A stretch of 64,000 bases of DNA, taken from Chloroflexota bacterium (GTDB lineage Bacteria > Chloroflexota > UBA11872 > VXOZ01). The position numbers and the translations under genes are program-made. Numbering within the stretch: the first letter of the stretch is position 1; each line of letters opens with the position of its first letter. The DNA lies in the NCBI GenBank assembly GCA_964291655.2, contig OZ219802.1:2080001-2144000 (forward strand). Reading direction: 5' to 3'. Below the pieces are notes generated by a model, which saw nothing but the letters and a program-made list of their open reading frames with translations, was not told where the DNA came from and did no database searches. Positions 5,392 through 52,428 of the stretch are shown here, one piece after another.

Positions 5392-5651
5392 GGAGACCCT
5401 TGCGAAACCTAAGGGGAAGCGAAAGCGTTCCCACTCCCTCGACGGGAGTGGGCTAGAGCCTGCCCCGTACGTGATACGGGGGTGCGGGTGAATCTCCTGA
5501 AGTCTCTCCATATGTACACCGATTCTGCCCTGATACGTCTTGACACTACTCAGCGTAAAGGCCATTGTAGCAAAGAGACCCCCTCACCCCAACTCTCTCA
5601 TCCAGGAGAGGGAGTGCCCCTGTTTGAAAGTGGGGTTATGCAAGGTTCTCC
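5392..5651. mobile_element. MITE with IS5-like GGAGACC...(G)GTTCTCC ends enclosing an inverted pair of CCCTCTCCC-type REP hairpins
   Basis: Colinear homologue at 51355-51591; terminal inverted repeats; no credible CDS. Confidence 0.65.
5457..5480 (+). mobile_element. 24-nt hairpin insert, type A (AGCCTGCCCCGTACGTGATACGGG)
   Basis: Absent from the homologous site at 51420/51421 (GGCTAG|GGTG). Confidence 0.7.
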
Positions 5652-8431: not shown

Positions 8432-9919
8432 TCAACTGCCCAGAGATTCCGCCACAGGGTGCTTACTACGCAACGTGCGGCTCGCTTCCGGGATGCGTTG
8501 CCATGTCGCAAGGGCTGACTTCCTGTCTCCCGCCAGCGCCTGGGCGTAGGCCAGGTTTGCCAGCACGTCCCAGCGGTTGCAGGGCTGCCAGAGGGCGATT
8601 GCTTGTTGGTCTGAAGAGGAGGGCACGGGCGTCGCAGTGAGTTCCACGACCCGATAGAGCCGTCGTCCAAACACCGTGATGGGCCTGCCCCCGCACACCG
8701 CCAAGACGGCAGAACCGTCAGCCGCTTTCACGACGCCGAGAAAGCGTCCGGTCGTCCAAATTGCGCTGCCGACCAAGCTAGCGTAGAGAACAAGGGCGCC
8801 ACCCACCGGCACCACGTGAAACGTCGGAAAGGCGGCGACCACAATACCGCTGACCGCCGCCAGGGCGCAGAACGTCCAGAGGAGCCACACCACGCGCAAG
8901 CGGCCGATCCCCAGCATTTCGAAGTGGTGGTGCAGCGGCGTAGCCGTAAACGGAATTGGAAACTCTGTATGGGGCACAAAGTGCGGTGTCCCGGCATAGC
9001 GTCCCAGGCGCACACAGTGGCGGAAGAACGGCGTAACGACTTTGGCTTGCAGAAACCCGGATCCGCCGTCCAGCAAGAAGACGCCGCCGATGAAGAGCCA
9101 AATCGCATCCGCGCCGGCAAAGAGCGCCAGTGCGGCAAAGGCGCCGCCGAGCCCCAGCGCGCCGCTATCGCCGAGATAGATGCGGGCGCGTCGTTTCACC
9201 GTCCCCGTCGACGACCAATCGGAAGGCTGATTGCAGAGCAGCAGCCCGATGCACACACCCAGCAGCGCCGCCGCAAAGGCGATCAGCTCGCCGTCTGCCT
9301 CGCGTATGATGAGCGAGAGCAACATTCCGCCGCCGGCTATAGTCGCCATGCCGGCAGTCAGACCGTCAATGCCGTCGCTCACGGCGACTGAAAACGCCGA
9401 CCCAAGCGTGAGCGCAAAGAGCCAGACCAGCGTGAGCCCGAGACCGACGATGCCGGCGACGTTGAGGGCTTGCAGCACTCTACCGCCCTGTGCGGCTGCC
9501 TGCGTGAAGTCTCCCGACCACCAAAACAGCGCGGCAACCGCAATTAGCGCCGCAATCGCGTGGGCAGACAGGTAGGCGCTGTCGCCGAAGCCGGTGCCTT
9601 GCCGCCACTTTAGCCAGTCATCGATGAAACCGATGCCAAAGAAGAGCGATGTCAGAAGAATGAGCAAGAGCAGGAGATCGCCGGTGTCGGGCCAGACGAT
9701 TCGCCAAACGCCGCCCACGCACCATAGCGTAATGAACAATGCAATGCCGCCGACGCTGGGCAGGCGCAGGCTGGGTAGGTCTTCATGGTCTTTGCTCTGC
9801 ACTACCGGCTTGACCTGGCCGGACGTGAAGCGCGGGAACAAGCGGCGCAACACGGCGCTCAGGAGCAATGTCAGCCCCGTTGCACCGCCCAACACCAGTA
9901 CGGTCGTGAGTACGTCCAT
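8432..9919 (-). CDS. mraY: MraY-like polyprenyl-phosphate sugar-phosphate transferase (glycosyltransferase family 4) with C-terminal extension
   Basis: GFIDDWLK, SDGIDGL, YLGDSGAL, PLHHHFE; many TM segments; divergent and not in a dcw cluster. Confidence 0.65.
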   Translation of the reverse strand: MDVLTTVLVLGGATGLTLLLSAVLRRLFPRFTSGQVKPVVQSKDHEDLPSLRLPSVGGIALFITLWCVGGVWRIVWPDTGDLLLLLILLTSLFFGIGFIDDWLKWRQGTGFGDSAYLSAHAIAALIAVAALFWWSGDFTQAAAQGGRVLQALNVAGIVGLGLTLVWLFALTLGSAFSVAVSDGIDGLTAGMATIAGGGMLLSLIIREADGELIAFAAALLGVCIGLLLCNQPSDWSSTGTVKRRARIYLGDSGALGLGGAFAALALFAGADAIWLFIGGVFLLDGGSGFLQAKVVTPFFRHCVRLGRYAGTPHFVPHTEFPIPFTATPLHHHFEMLGIGRLRVVWLLWTFCALAAVSGIVVAAFPTFHVVPVGGALVLYASLVGSAIWTTGRFLGVVKAADGSAVLAVCGGRPITVFGRRLYRVVELTATPVPSSSDQQAIALWQPCNRWDVLANLAYAQALAGDRKSALATWQRIPEASRTLRSKHPVAESLGS

Positions 9920-9975
9920 TCAACTCAACTGCTTATATTTTTCCACTAACTCATCGCAATGATTGAATGCTGCCC

Positions 9976-10229
9976 TTCGACAAGCTCAGGGCGAACGGAA
10001 TAGAAAAGTCCGGGACAAACGGATTCGACAGGCTCAGGGCGTACGCTATCGAAATGCTCAGAACGAACGCAGTCAACAAGCTCAGGGCGAACGCTATCGA
10101 AACGCTCAAGGTAAACGCGATCGAAAAGCTCGGATCGAACGAATTTGACAGGCTCAGGGCGATCGGAATCGCATAGTTCGGGACAAACGGATTTGACAGG
10201 CCCGGGACAAACGCATTCGACAAGCTGAG
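9976..10229. repeat. degenerate tandem array with exact 24-bp period, 10 full units plus 1 partial
   Basis: Unit consensus about TTCGACAAGCTCAGGGCGAACGGA; TTCGA at 9976 and at 10216 (=10x24). Confidence 0.9.
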
Positions 10230-10293
10230 AGCCTGCCCCGTACCTGATACAGCGAATCGACACGAAACGGGGGTGAATGGAAGAGCGGGGAAT

Positions 10294-10726
10294 CCGTTCG
10301 TGCTGAGCCTGCCTGTCCTGAGCTTTTCGAAGGGTCGAAGCACGGATTGGCGCATGAGAGCCGAACTATGAGATGCCTTCAAGTAGTCCAACACGATTGT
10401 ATTGATCGGTAGCGTAGTCCCTTCGACTGAGCCTGTACTGAGCACTTCGGCAAGCTCAGCACAGGCTCTGCCGAAGTGCTCTGGACACGTTTGCAACCCC
10501 GTATCACGCGCGGGGCAGGCTCTGCGCCATCTTGCCGTATCGTGGAGCGAGCACACCAGCCCGGGGGCAGAGCACAGGTTACAAACCTGTGCTACCGGAA
10601 CGCTTACTGTGCTACCGGAGCTCTTACCTATCTACCGGCGCTCCCGTTCGTGCTGAGCCTGCCTGTCCTGAGCTTGTCGAAGGGTCGAAGCACGGTTTGG
10701 CGCATGAGAGCCGAACTATGAGATGC
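10294..10726. repeat. two direct ~83-bp REP composites flanking a nested GTAG-REP pair
   Basis: CCGTTCGTGCTGAGCCTGCCTGTCC...CTATGAGATGC at ~10294 and ~10644; GGTAGCG...GCTACCGG pair between them. Confidence 0.8.
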
Positions 10727-10729
10727 TTT

Positions 10730-11581
10730 CTAATTCAACTCTTGCCAGATCCGGCGCACGAAAGCAATGGCCTCGCGGGTCTCCTCTACGCGGTTCTCCC
10801 CGGCCTCGCGCTCGATGCAGTGGTAACCCGTGAACCCGATGTCTTGATACGACTTCAGGTAGCGCGGCCACTCGATCCAGCCCTGGCCCAATGGAGTCTC
10901 ATGGCGGCCGGAGTCATCCTCCACGGCGGAATCTTTGATGTGTGTATGTATGATATGGTCCCGCAGGATGTAGACTGCTTCGTGGGGGTCGGATTCGGCA
11001 AAGGCCTCCGCGCGATCGTATGGGCGACCCTCTTGTTTGGCAATGCGCGCCGCCCACGTGATGAAGTTTGCCGGGTCGAGGTTAATCTTTATTCCATCGG
11101 TATCGATTGAGTTAATGAGATCCAGCAGCACGGACGGCGGTTCCGGGCCGGTCTCGATACCGAAGTACATGCCCGTCTGCTCCGCATGCGTACCGATTGC
11201 TTCCATAGCTTCGCGAAAGACCTGCCGTCGCGGGGCGTTGGCGTCTTTGGGCACGATGCCGATGTGGCTGGTGAGCGCCGGGGCGCCGAGAGCGCGGGTG
11301 TGGTCGAGCAGGCGCCTGGTTTCGTCCACCCGCTCAGCCATCGTGTCGGCATCTCCAAAGTCGTCCAGGCCGCCGTCGGTTGCCGAAATCACCATGCCCA
11401 AGTCTGACACACGCTGCTGCACTTCCTTGATTCCCGCCGCATCGAGCTCATCGGGACCGTATTCGCCGTGCCCTACCGTCAACTGCACGCTCTCAGCACC
11501 GATCTGCGCCGCCGTTTCGAGGCCTTCCGGCCCCGGCGTGCGCAAGCAGATGAGCCGCACACCAACTTTGATATCAGCCAT
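10730..11581 (-). CDS. sugar phosphate isomerase/epimerase (xylose isomerase-like TIM barrel)
   Basis: GIETGPE, NLDPAN, HTHIKD, CIERE metal motifs. Confidence 0.88.
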   Translation of the reverse strand: MADIKVGVRLICLRTPGPEGLETAAQIGAESVQLTVGHGEYGPDELDAAGIKEVQQRVSDLGMVISATDGGLDDFGDADTMAERVDETRRLLDHTRALGAPALTSHIGIVPKDANAPRRQVFREAMEAIGTHAEQTGMYFGIETGPEPPSVLLDLINSIDTDGIKINLDPANFITWAARIAKQEGRPYDRAEAFAESDPHEAVYILRDHIIHTHIKDSAVEDDSGRHETPLGQGWIEWPRYLKSYQDIGFTGYHCIEREAGENRVEETREAIAFVRRIWQELN

Positions 11582-11674
11582 GGCAATACCTTTCTTCTAC
11601 GACTTCCCCATTTCCATTTCTTAATTCAAACAAAATCAACACCGTCATTACCATGAAAATGGCAAGCCGACCTC

Positions 11675-11833
11675 CGTCATTCCCGCGCAAGCGGGAATCC
11701 ATCTTCTCTACACTGCACGCGAGAGGTTTCTTGTGAGAAACAACTCTCGCACTTGTTCAAGGTGCGTTGTTCGGAGGAAGGCCATGTTGGGACGATGCAG
11801 GGCACGAGATTCCTCGCTCCGCTTCGGAATGAC
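11675..11833. repeat. inverted pair of CGTC/GTCATTCC-type REPs
   Basis: CGTCATTCCCGCGCAAGCGGGAATCCA and GATTCCTCGCTCCGCTTCGGAATGAC; relatives at 24078, 31750, 43071 and 57790. Confidence 0.8.
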
Positions 11834-11901
11834 AATGCGCGCCAACACCGCTTTGCACAAAGCCGCCACTGCGCTGACATCATACCACGCCTGTTGCGGT
11901 G

Positions 11902-13116
11902 TCACGCCAGCACGTCACGAACCTGCTGTTCCATGTACTCAAGTGCCCGTGGCAGCATCACCTGACCGCGAATAGCCGCTTGCAGCGTCTCTGCGCAGAC
12001 TTCCTCCACCTGCGGATAGGCGGCAAACATTGGAAACGTCAGCATGTGGTTCTGAATGGTCTCCTCCAACAATTCCAGCCGCCTTGCATGCATCGTGCCC
12101 GAGGGTGTCTCGCTGCGGACGCGCGCCATCACCGCGTCTCTCGGCACAATTGCGCCGGCCTGGGTCTCCAGGTACTGGCTCTCTGCGGAGGTCAGAAAGC
12201 GCACGAGCGCCAGCGCGCCTTCCATGTCCCGCACCGATGCGGGAATAGCGAACGAGTGACCTCCCGCATAGACGGCGCGTTTACCAGCGGGGCCAAGCGG
12301 ATAGGGCGCAACGCCAAACGCATCGGCTACGGCGCTGGTCTGCGGGTCGGTGAGTAGGCCGTAGTAGGCTGGCCAGTCCGCGGTCAACGCGCAACTGCCG
12401 TCACGAAAGAGCTGCGATACTTCATCGAAGTAGGTCGCGGTGAGATCACGCGGGGTGAGGCCCTGCTGGTAGAGGTCGGCCAGGAAGCCCAATGCCCAGC
12501 GGCCGGCAGACGTATCAAATGACGGGTTAAGCTGCGTATCGAATAGTGTCCCGCCCGCCATGGCGACCAACTCGAAGAACGTCCCAAACAAACCCGAGGA
12601 ATGTCCGGGAAAGGCAAAGCCAAAGAGGTCGGGAGGCCGCGTGAAATACGTTGCCACGTCACGCACCTCATCCCACGTCCGCGGCACGCGCAGCGGACGG
12701 CCGTACTGCCGTTGAAACCGCGCGTGCTCCTCAGCATCTTCCAGCAGATCGCTCCGGTAGAAGAGAATGCGGGCGTCCACGTTGCGGGGAATCTGCACGA
12801 GCGCGCCATCGACCCGCGCAAGTTCGAGCAAAGCTGGCGAATAGTCTGCAAGCTCAGCTTCAGAAAAGTGCGTATCAAGGGGAAGCAGCCACGCCTGCTG
12901 AGCCGGTGCGTATTTGACGTGGGTTGAGATGACGTCGTAAGCTGCTGTGCCGGCAGCAATCACCTCGTCGATGTGGGCATTCAGCGCGGGATGCGGCAGG
13001 CGCACGTGGACATTGACCGCGTAACCGGTCTCCTGCTCGAATTGGGGTAAGCGACTGTAGAGCGCGTCATACTGCGGCCCGCTGATGAAGGCGACGTTGA
13101 GGTGTTGCTGCGGCAA
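11902..13116 (-). CDS. sugar ABC-type solute-binding protein with no obvious signal peptide
   Basis: SBP_bac_1-like motifs (IPRNVDARILFYRSDL, PRTWDEV, GGHSFAI); GAGGAG upstream of TTG. Confidence 0.8.
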   Translation of the reverse strand: MPQQHLNVAFISGPQYDALYSRLPQFEQETGYAVNVHVRLPHPALNAHIDEVIAAGTAAYDVISTHVKYAPAQQAWLLPLDTHFSEAELADYSPALLELARVDGALVQIPRNVDARILFYRSDLLEDAEEHARFQRQYGRPLRVPRTWDEVRDVATYFTRPPDLFGFAFPGHSSGLFGTFFELVAMAGGTLFDTQLNPSFDTSAGRWALGFLADLYQQGLTPRDLTATYFDEVSQLFRDGSCALTADWPAYYGLLTDPQTSAVADAFGVAPYPLGPAGKRAVYAGGHSFAIPASVRDMEGALALVRFLTSAESQYLETQAGAIVPRDAVMARVRSETPSGTMHARRLELLEETIQNHMLTFPMFAAYPQVEEVCAETLQAAIRGQVMLPRALEYMEQQVRDVLA

Positions 13117-22963: not shown

Positions 22964-23126
22964 CGCTTCCGCAGGGCCGCAGGTACGTCACGCCTCGTGG
23001 TCCAACTATTACGGATCGATGGGTAGCGCAGGTTCGCGCGTCCCGTGCGCGCAACCTGCGCGGACTTGCCGTGTTGCCGGGCAACGTCCTACGCAAAACT
23101 GGCAAAACGGAGTGAAAGAGATACGC

Positions 23127-41555: not shown

Positions 41556-41579
41556 CCCGTATCAGGTACGGGGCAGGCT
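41556..41579 (-). mobile_element. 24-nt hairpin insert, type A, within a CTCAG|GGCGAACGG REP
   Basis: Removing it restores the REP seen intact at 9985-9998. Confidence 0.7.
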
Positions 41580-51354: not shown

Positions 51355-51591
51355 GGAGACCTTTACGTAACCCTAGCGGATGTGAGAAAAGTCCCCTCTC
51401 CCTCGATGGGAGAGGGCTAGGGTGAGGGTGGTTCTCCTGAAATCCCTCTATATGCACTCCGATTCTGCGCTGCTATGCGTTGACACTGCACATCGCAAGG
51501 GACCTATGTAGCAAGAAGACCCCTCTCCCCGACCATCTCCCCAGGGAGAGGGAGTCTTTTCGTCTGCAGGCGAGGTCATTCACAGGTCTCC
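51355..51591. mobile_element. IS5-like MITE carrying an inverted REP pair
   Basis: GGAGACCT...AGGTCTCC ends; 4-bp TSD TCCT; homologous to 5392-5651. Confidence 0.78.
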
Positions 51592-52332: not shown

Positions 52333-52428
52333 GGTAGCGCAGGCCCTTCGACAGAGCCTGCACTGAGCCTGCCGAAGTGCTCAGGACACGTTTGCAACCC
52401 CGTATCGAGTACGGGGCAGGCTCTGCGC
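52333..52428. repeat. GTAG-REP host carrying three short inserts
   Basis: Removing the inserts gives GGTAGCGCAGGTTTGCAACCTGCGC; sister composite at 10408-10527. Confidence 0.8.

Follow-up and report, generated by a model that had tools for sequence, protein, structure and literature searches.

A 24-nt tagged hairpin as a gene-less mobile DNA module within hairpin repeats of Chloroflexota and other bacteria

Results

The nest and the copies in the window

The window analyzed here is a stretch of 64 kb (C2:2080001-2144000) of the two-contig (C1, C2), 3.47-Mb genome of a Chloroflexota bacterium, referred to as G000 where it has to be told apart from its relatives. Positions without a contig name are those of the window. 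Between two convergent genes lies a gap of 811 nt (about 9920-10730) which is packed with short repeats, and several of these repeats are interrupted by one of two short units. Type A is a 24-nt unit made of the tag AGCCTG and a small hairpin; type B shares the tag and the target with type A. We conclude that type A is a real mobile DNA module without a gene, and its length appears to place it among the smallest mobile DNA elements known: its boundaries are precise, it prefers a short target, its sites are filled in one genome and empty in the next, its hairpin is under constraint and it is spread across phyla.

The most complex arrangement is found at 10408-10527, where a first-pass annotation, made from the letters alone, had described nesting to four levels (a REP, a 23-mer, a type B and an inverted type B). 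This structure was borne out. The outermost host is a GTAG-type repetitive extragenic palindrome (REP), a kind whose consensus words GTAGCGCAGGTTTG and CAGGTTTGCAACCT are present in 44-78 copies in the genome. Its left arm (GGTAGCGTAG plus T; 10408-10418, plus strand) is followed by the left half of a 23-mer (CCCTTCGACTG; 10419-10429, plus strand) belonging to the 23-nt class ggtagcgcag|GCCCTTCGACAAGCTCAGGACAC|gtttgtaacc. The 23-mer is split by an outer type B, whose 5′ part (AGCCTGTACTGAGC; 10430-10443, plus strand) and 3′ part (CTGCCGAAGT; 10468-10477, plus strand) enclose the innermost type B, a unit of 24 nt in inverted orientation (10444-10467, minus strand; AGCCTGTGCTGAGCTTGCCGAAGT on its own strand). 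After the right half of the 23-mer (GCTCTGGACACG; 10478-10489, plus strand), the REP continues with its loop and the start of its right arm (TTTGCAAC; 10490-10497, plus strand) until it is interrupted once more, at CAAC|CTGCGC, by a type A copy (10498-10521, minus strand; GCGCAG|A|GTTGCAAAC on its own strand). The remainder of the right arm, CTGCGC, occupies 10522-10527 (plus strand). The parts were read from the window sequence, those of type B also from the alignment with the closest relative described below.

Three further type A copies are present in the window. One lies at 5457-5480 (plus strand) in an element of about 221 nt, called H1, that resembles a miniature inverted-repeat transposable element (MITE) (gggctAG|A|GGTGCGGG) and has an empty twin at 51420/1; the others are found at 41556-41579 (minus strand) in a repeat called H2 (caggctcAG|A|GGCGAACGG; read from the window sequence and checked by excision) and at 52399-52422 (minus strand) in a REP (gcggcgcAG|A|GTTGCAAAC). 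The 23-mer of this latter REP also hosts a type B (52355-52378, plus strand). All seven copies of the two types that had been claimed were found, preceded by AG, followed by G and free of a target duplication, except that the outer type B of the nest follows TG instead. Empty counterparts of the hosts had been proposed as well. Those at 51420/1, 9989/90, 7894/5 and 52368/9 were recovered (18 nt, ≤2 mismatches), but the proposed REP hosts were not: in the REPs at 10572-10592 and 23025-23063 the site CAAC|CTGCGC is unoccupied, yet both fall below this stringency. What had been taken for a decayed type A copy at 10230 is a long form of 42 nt (10230-10271, plus strand; 26 such copies in the genome), i.e., a type A whose loop holds a hairpin piece of 18 nt. 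This piece, CGATAC-AGC-GTATCG-ACA, gives a direct-inverted-direct triplet of CGATAC, and the long form could be either a further nested unit or the product of a local template switch.

An 11-nt core of the unit was found seven times in the window when one mismatch was allowed, compared to 2.9 expected occurrences, and 3 of 100 shuffled windows reached seven; the genome-wide excision test presented below is stronger than this chance test confined to the window. Rfam produced no match at gathering thresholds over the whole window. Public contigs covering 9900-10800 end at repeats; none spans a junction of the 10444-10467 unit with 31 letters on either side, and no joint lacking the 24 nt was listed among them.

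Two tandem repeats accompany the nest. An array of H2 units with a period of 24 nt (TCGAAAAGCTCAGGGCGAACGCTA, 6.5 copies) occupies 9977-10131; the period equals the length of the insert and the array unit includes the AG|G target. At 10587-10643, a 20-nt tandem repeat (CTGTGCTACCGGAACGCTTA, 2-2.7 copies), built of pieces of the REP right arm, adjoins the REP at 10572-10592.

Anatomy of the units

Type A has the layout AGCCTG followed by CCCCGTA-loop-TACGGG and then a G. Its 24 nt are composed of the 6-nt tag and an 18-nt hairpin, the seventh base pair of which is supplied by the following G. Folded as a single strand together with this G, the unit forms a hairpin of 7 bp (−7.4 kcal/mol, z −2.8); for the entire nest, −33 kcal/mol and a z of −4.35 were obtained. 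The terminal sequences AGCCTG and ACGGG are not inverted repeats of each other. In this genome, the exact tag is carried by 45 of 54 hairpins, and the remaining nine have near-match tags.

The stem pair formed by positions 12 and 20 shows a compensated change. It is T-A in 46 of 49 copies here and in 45 of 46 copies of the closest relative, G008, and G-C in 54 of 58 copies from viral contigs. The two bases are complementary in 47/49, 45/46 and 57/58 copies, respectively, in contrast to only 3, 2 and 7 copies for the shifted control pair 13-20. Thus, the hairpin is under constraint, which holds for type A only. Positions 1-11 and 21-24 were fixed in the patterns used for the distribution analysis; their conservation is consequently demonstrated by the mismatch-tolerant search of this genome only.

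Type B is different. Its own folding has a z of about 0, it pairs with its host instead, and most of its sequence is its own target in reverse complement. Both types had been described as hairpin inserts of exactly 24 nt, and while this is accurate for type A, type B is 23 or 24 nt long genome-wide and has no hairpin of its own.

Genome-wide excision, target and hosts

Allowing up to three mismatches to AGCCTGCCCCGTACTCGATACGGG, 90 dispersed type A copies were counted in the genome. Removal of exactly 24 nt restored a 12+12-nt sequence present elsewhere in the genome for 45 of them. Control removals of 23 and 25 nt did so for two copies and one copy, respectively, and removals of 20, 21, 22, 26, 27 or 28 nt for none. 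When exact matching of 10+10 nt was demanded, the 24-nt removal still succeeded in 26 of 90 cases and every other length in none. The bases around the insert are similarly restricted, with A at position −2 in 83, G at −1 in 80 and G at +1 in 80 of the 90 copies.

Most copies reside in other repeats: 43 in H1, 16 in H2, 10 in REPs and eight in H4, a repeat of the Ssn-related motif (SRM) kind, with 13 in other contexts. The sites read GAGAGGGYTAG|GGTGAGGG in the MITE-like H1, CTTCGACAGGCTCAG|GGCGAACGG in H2 and GTCATTCCGGCGAAA|GCCGGAATCC in H4; since the base before the insert is A in H4, the left boundary is fixed exactly. The unit enters hairpin repeats (REP, SRM, MITE-like) in the loop or at its edge and, less often, unique or coding DNA, and insertion prefers the 3′ side of the loop (GAAA|G in H4, TCAA|G in the reversed SRM, CTAG|GGTGAGGG in H1, CAG|GG in H2). 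A de novo scan for frequent 20-mers split by 12-80 nt returned type A, type B, the 23-mer and the 18-nt loop piece as separate classes. Where type A copies lie close together (C1 at 21 kb and 742 kb, C2 at 1015 kb and 2485 kb), the pairs are all direct; the other copies are single, and no inverted doublet was present among the copies of this genome.

Some observations on the surroundings may be added. H1 has one copy at 5393-5628 of the window and 26 full-length copies in G000. The segment C2:1-409000 is devoid of type A, the rest of the contig being dotted with copies. Other GC-rich hairpins of 17-19 nt were seen in the loops of the REP at 23025-23063, at C2:1986418 and in the SRM upstream of the ssn gene C2:1259759-1260040; it seems that small inserts land quite generally in the loops of hairpin repeats. 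One type A copy (C1:345588-345611) lies in frame within an open reading frame (ORF) of 902 aa, in a repetitive region where the alignment with the related genome G006 is not clean.

Filled and empty sites in relatives

The genes flanking the nest keep their synteny throughout the other 16 genomes of the genus, in most of which they are spaced by about 0-260 nt. G008 aligns to the whole query with 93% identity and is near-identical around the nest. Precisely the 24 nt of 10444-10467 are missing from it, and the outer type B is unsplit there. The G008 ortholog has no counterpart of the type B at 52355-52378 either (24-nt gap in the alignment of locus L065), and a type B of 23 nt occurs in G008 only, at a site corresponding to about 10672, where the present genome has no insert. 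The type A copies at 10498-10521 and 52399-52422 are filled in both genomes. In the tandem array at 9977-10131, the genomes differ by two 24-nt units.

All 49 type A copies of G008 were traced to their places in the present genome. Seventeen lie within one spanning alignment of at least 600 nt; 16 of these are filled in both genomes and one, at locus L048, is found in G008 only, the site here being precisely empty (cacactcacc|ctagccctctccc). For another 16 copies the flanks are collinear and the whole host segment differs. The remaining 16 could not be anchored; among them, L027 is a probable case of precise absence here, with a left flank of 702 nt and a right flank which is shorter and less similar. 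Outside the repeats, the type A at C1:357754-357777 is inserted in unique intergenic sequence, and the ortholog in G006 is empty (AGGCC|CGTCGTG); the alignment gap amounts to 25 in this case because an A run differs, too. Comparison of orthologous loci for filled and empty sites had been named in advance as a way to refute mobility, and the precise differences found favor it.

None of the 15 other genus genomes has an H1 element at the L048 locus. As the H1 host at that locus is present in G000 and G008 only, gain and loss of the insert are indistinguishable there. H1 itself is also present in one and absent from the other of these two genomes at several loci (e.g., L042, L022, L037, L060).

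Host tree and source of the inserts

A tree was calculated from 36 H1 copies of this genome and the G008 loci after removal of the insert columns, with four truncated or over-long rows dropped; the alignment is short (221 columns). The filled/empty label required eight changes on this tree, at least three of which are forced by supported branches. Shuffled labels needed 11.3 changes on average and were as low as eight in 12 of 500 shuffles. The orthologous pair that is empty in G000 and filled in G008 appears as sisters with 96% support. We conclude from these changes that copies of a single host family have acquired or lost the insert on several occasions, to which gene conversion may have contributed.

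Type A does not resemble its own targets. For the innermost type B of the nest, local template switching was considered as the source and rejected, since this unit is identical in 24 of 24 positions to a copy in another REP at C2:1530650, compared to 22 of 24 for the reverse complement of the type B which hosts it.

Distribution across bacteria and viral contigs

The pattern AGCCTGCCCCG-N5-G-N3-CGGG was detected in 22 of 41 related genomes. All 16 of the genus were positive (2-54 copies each), as were five of seven from a second family, and none of 17 from four other families; the reversed control pattern matched once in the entire set and never in the genus or the second family. A stricter pattern, AGCCTGCCCCGTAC-NN-GATACGGG, was found in at least 120 stretches of species-representative genomes, with a chance expectation, by our own estimate, of below one. 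Among the matches listed, most carriers are, by their record names, assemblies of Dehalococcoidia or Chloroflexota. The list also includes two Pseudoxanthomonas isolates, Syntrophaceae, Desulfatiglans, Methylococcales, Nitrosomonadales, Saprospiraceae, Flavobacteriaceae, Entotheonella and Brocadiaceae. Five distant genomes hold 10, 41, 10, 20 and 3 copies; the cultured Pseudoxanthomonas sacheonensis DSM 19373 holds 41. The target preference recurs at 120 loci of other genomes (146 copies), with A at −2 in 115, G at −1 in 111 and G at +1 in 141 copies. These copies have 104 distinct pairs of flanks, and their hosts are SRM-type loops, GGGAGAGGG-type repeats and some coding sequence. An adapter or assembly contaminant was considered as the origin of the unit and is ruled out by lineage-specific compensated variants, conserved orthologous copies and the target preference.

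In viral contigs, a looser pattern gave 83 matches, 59 of which have both free stem pairs complementary. Most of them are the variant CCCCGGAC..GATCCGGG. At six viral loci (L247, L261, L263, L221, L288, L289), type A lies in frame within protein genes, and the opposite strand of these copies reads PGS(G/S)PGQA (e.g., PGSGPGQA), with the position shared among homologs that have diverged. Conservation is higher over the 24 nt than in the coding sequence on either side. We would guess that the host genes are structural genes of phages or gene-transfer agents.

Discussion

How the unit may move

The first-pass annotation had proposed minimal, non-autonomous mobile units which land in repeats. This proposal gains support from excision at 24 nt only, from filled and empty orthologous sites, from the copy at a unique site and from the interspersed labels on the H1 tree. 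We consider it probable that the module is moved in trans through single-stranded DNA by a putative enzyme; both this route and a dedicated protein are inferences of ours. The unit would leave its site as a single strand, by excision or by copying, and a protein acting in trans, reading the tag plus the hairpin, would join it into a single-stranded target. Insertion is precise and occurs without target duplication before a G, usually after AG, at sites prone to be single-stranded. By our own reasoning, the 24 nt of type A, if closed into a circle, would take the shape of a dumbbell, with a 7-bp stem and a loop of 5-6 nt at each end. Since type B contains its own target in reverse complement, it can land in its own copies, which would account for units nested like dolls.

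Several points speak against movement by such an enzyme or complicate it. None of the polymorphisms is polarized as to gain or precise loss, and G008 and many other carriers are metagenome assemblies, which err at repeats. Gene conversion between filled and empty paralogs within one host family could mimic insertion. The leading A of type B is optional, hence its two lengths. Orientation of type A is mixed along both contigs with no visible replichore bias, the GC skew being too weak to place the origin. No candidate enzyme is present in all carriers. Y1_Tnp (E ≤ 0.001) had no match in G039 (61 copies, 96% complete) or G033 (15 copies). In G012 (45 copies), G033, G021, G010 and G011, GIY-YIG matches fell solely into open frames of >600 aa, which are presumably UvrC-like, and RVT_1 was not found in G012, G033 or G037 (one contig, 10 copies). 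G033 has neither Y1_Tnp nor a small GIY-YIG gene nor RVT_1 at the thresholds used. Searching the 120 loci of other genomes (up to 8 kb each) by tblastn yielded no ssn gene and a single weak match resembling a REP-associated tyrosine transposase (RAYT). When 2610 ORFs lying within 2.5 kb of the copies were clustered all against all, the largest family was present at 6 of 120 loci; its members are putative transposases of insertion sequences, and the ORFs between close copy pairs of G000 contain nothing recurrent.

A wider formulation can be offered tentatively, and we would not yet rely on it. The AGCCTG-tagged 24-nt hairpins may constitute a third class of tagged hairpins, beside GTAG (RAYT) and CGTC/SRM (Ssn), that is, a pan-bacterial mobile element crossing phyla partly on phages and entering single-stranded hairpin loops at AG|G. 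Its mover might be an unrecognized enzyme or a universal host enzyme acting on a dumbbell-like intermediate.

Candidate enzymes and other explanations

The enzymes suggested at the outset were of the HUH kind. IS200/IS605 elements and their gene-less derivatives insert precisely 3′ of a short motif through single-stranded intermediates and leave no target duplication. They need two different subterminal hairpins and span roughly 100 nt or more even when gene-less. Type A shares the specific short motif and the absence of a target duplication, and its anatomy of a 5′ tag plus hairpin is REP-like; it differs in having one hairpin within 24 nt instead of two different ends, and type B has none of its own. 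A RAYT or another Y1 HUH enzyme acting in the manner of IS200/IS605 is, nevertheless, an unlikely mover. There is one RAYT gene in the genome (C2:2523382-2524059, minus strand; NF047646, 82.2 bits against a cut-off of 80), and the distant carriers G042 and G044 have 8 and 17 Y1_Tnp matches, respectively. However, this RAYT is bracketed by hairpins of the type GCGGGCG-N4-CGCCCGC rather than by type A, and its orthologs (≥78% identity) are confined to 7 of the 17 genus genomes, compared to 17 of 17 for type A. The carriers free of Y1_Tnp named above, together with G021, where the only match is a fragment of 83 aa, as well as a tag that is AGCC and not GTAG and the lack of inverted doublets, argue in the same direction. 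The hairpins flanking the RAYT gene also differ from the commonest GTAG repeat of the genome (GTAGCGCGGGGGCTTGTCCCCCGC, about 150 copies). For the window itself, the annotation had stated that a candidate enzyme is absent, which is correct with regard to Y1 and small GIY-YIG genes.

Slightly more doubtful still is a division of labor in which a small Ssn-type GIY-YIG nuclease makes the cut and host repair or ligation completes the insertion, type A being a relative of the SRM. The genome has three Ssn-like GIY-YIG genes of about 95 aa (C2:1711905-1712189, plus strand; C2:1259759-1260040, minus strand; C1:823702-823965, plus strand), each flanked by inverted SRM-type hairpins in three different variants and not by type A. 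Homologs are found in 17 of 22 carriers and in 4 of 19 non-carriers among the 41 relatives. To our knowledge, GIY-YIG nucleases form no covalent intermediate and, therefore, would not perform strand transfer alone, which counts against this explanation. The motif known as NTS or SRM is CGTCATTCCCGCGMAVGCGGGAATCYRG, and such hairpins bracket the gene of the Ssn GIY-YIG single-strand nuclease in the order NTS-ssnA-NTS (Chenal et al., 2025, PMC11893778, as far as the accessible part goes). Judged by eye against the motif in that part, our host H4 (CGTCATTCCGGCGAAAGCCGGAATCC) fits. Type A has the same layout of tag plus hairpin, often sits in SRM loops, and, in one variant, has a loop, ACTYGAT, that equals the loop of an SRM variant seen as host; moreover, according to the same part of that paper, neither loop identity nor loop extensions block cleavage by Ssn (PMC11893778). 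Against this stand a type A tag which differs from CGTCA, the misfit of type A with the SRM motif, the absence of ssn genes beside the copies, including the 120 loci searched, and the five carriers, G012 with its 45 copies among them, in which GIY-YIG is limited to the long frames. In the accessible part of the same paper (PMC11893778), no mention of unit-length inserts in SRM loops was found. H4 is, as an SRM, a repeat of a known kind.

We assign a low probability to the possibility that the unit spreads mostly by gene conversion or templated break repair between paralogous hosts, with de novo insertion being very rare. It would fit that 77 of the 90 copies lie in four repeat families with many empty members, and that the labels on the H1 tree are somewhat clustered (8 changes vs. 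11.3). This explanation leaves unexplained how the unit entered at least five unrelated hosts, why a copy in unique sequence has an empty ortholog, and how in-frame copies in unrelated genes and different host repeats across phyla arose.

Movement by an RNA copy and reverse transcription appears improbable. Such a route was reportedly suggested for the cyanobacterial small dispersed repeats. Two reverse-transcriptase (RVT_1) genes exist in the genome, one of them as an ORF of 583 aa on a 2.7-kb segment (C1:353196-355908; 9197-11909 of locus L070) which is missing at the G006 ortholog. The carriers without RVT_1 do not agree with this route, nor does the lack of poly-A or priming marks; no truncated copies were noticed among 89 core matches, with no systematic search for them. 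The 2.7-kb segment is probably a mobile group II intron and sits between the two type A copies located outside repeats. In favor of the route, a 2026 preprint, as far as its accessible part goes, reports reverse transcriptases that produce hairpin cDNAs.

Finally, that nothing is mobile and that we are looking at fixed mosaic repeats, or at replication slippage or template switching at palindromes, is very improbable and for type A already contradicted, for although type B is mostly the reverse complement of its target, the long form resembles a local CGATAC triplication and an array of 24-nt period lies beside the nest, type A is unlike its targets, only excision of 24 nt restores empty sites, a unique-site insertion has an empty ortholog, the innermost type B is closer to a distant copy than to its host, and the same unit recurs across phyla.

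Comparison with known small repeats

Small dispersed repeats (SDRs) of cyanobacteria are the closest known kind, although we can set them beside type A by description only. SDR1-8 of Nostoc and relatives, reportedly described by Elhai et al. in 2008, are said to be units of about 21-27 nt with nesting and a compensated stem-loop, and to be confined to one cyanobacterial subgroup. Precise insertion of a 24-nt unit at AG|G matches that of these units of about 21-27 nt at a short target. Nesting in themselves and in other repeats is likewise shared (type B in type B in 23-mer in REP at 10408-10527), as is a stem-loop with compensatory changes (type A only), and neither kind has a known enzyme. 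SDR5 inserts between the third and fourth bases of HIP1 (PMC4390886), and the function of SDRs was still called unknown in 2026 (PMC13756078), both according to the accessible parts of these papers. The units described here appear to differ from SDRs in sequence, and they differ in the AG|G target and in their very wide occurrence in Chloroflexota and several other phyla; by their record names, the carriers listed are not cyanobacteria.

REPs and REPINs consist of a short tag beside a hairpin of 20-40 nt, are dispersed, extragenic and non-autonomous, and are thought to be processed as single-stranded DNA, as stated in the accessible parts of two papers (Bertels and Rainey, 2011, PMC3116915; Di Nocera et al., 2013, PMC3733652). 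Type A resembles them as a dispersed, mostly extragenic short tag with an imperfect palindrome, which has a 7-bp stem. In contrast to them, its tag is AGCC(TG) rather than GTAG or CGTC, it occurs as single units instead of inverted doublets, and it neither flanks the RAYT gene nor co-occurs with it. REPs, moreover, serve as targets here and not as movers.

Rickettsia palindromic elements are hairpin repeats of about 100-150 nt that lie in frame within protein genes without breaking them, and we know of no report of them nesting at a fixed dinucleotide. The likeness to type A is found in its in-frame copies in the 902-aa ORF and in viral genes. From MITEs, type A is set apart by having neither terminal inverted repeats nor a target-site duplication. 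A literature search by sequence words returned no paper with the unit and, at most, unrelated primer matches; papers and supplements outside this search may hold it.

Conclusion

If the 24-nt unit truly moves, it would set a lower size limit for mobile DNA and raise the question of how minimal the signal for a transposition machinery can be, in this case a tag of six bases and a hairpin of seven pairs. A mechanism for SDRs has been lacking since 2008, and the cultured carrier P. sacheonensis DSM 19373 opens the way to experiments. Work on single-stranded DNA might find a tool in a protein able to recognize tag plus hairpin and to join single strands with precision. Within genomes, units inserted in frame add eight residues to proteins, including putative phage structural proteins, and serial insertion explains how complex mosaic repeats can be built up.

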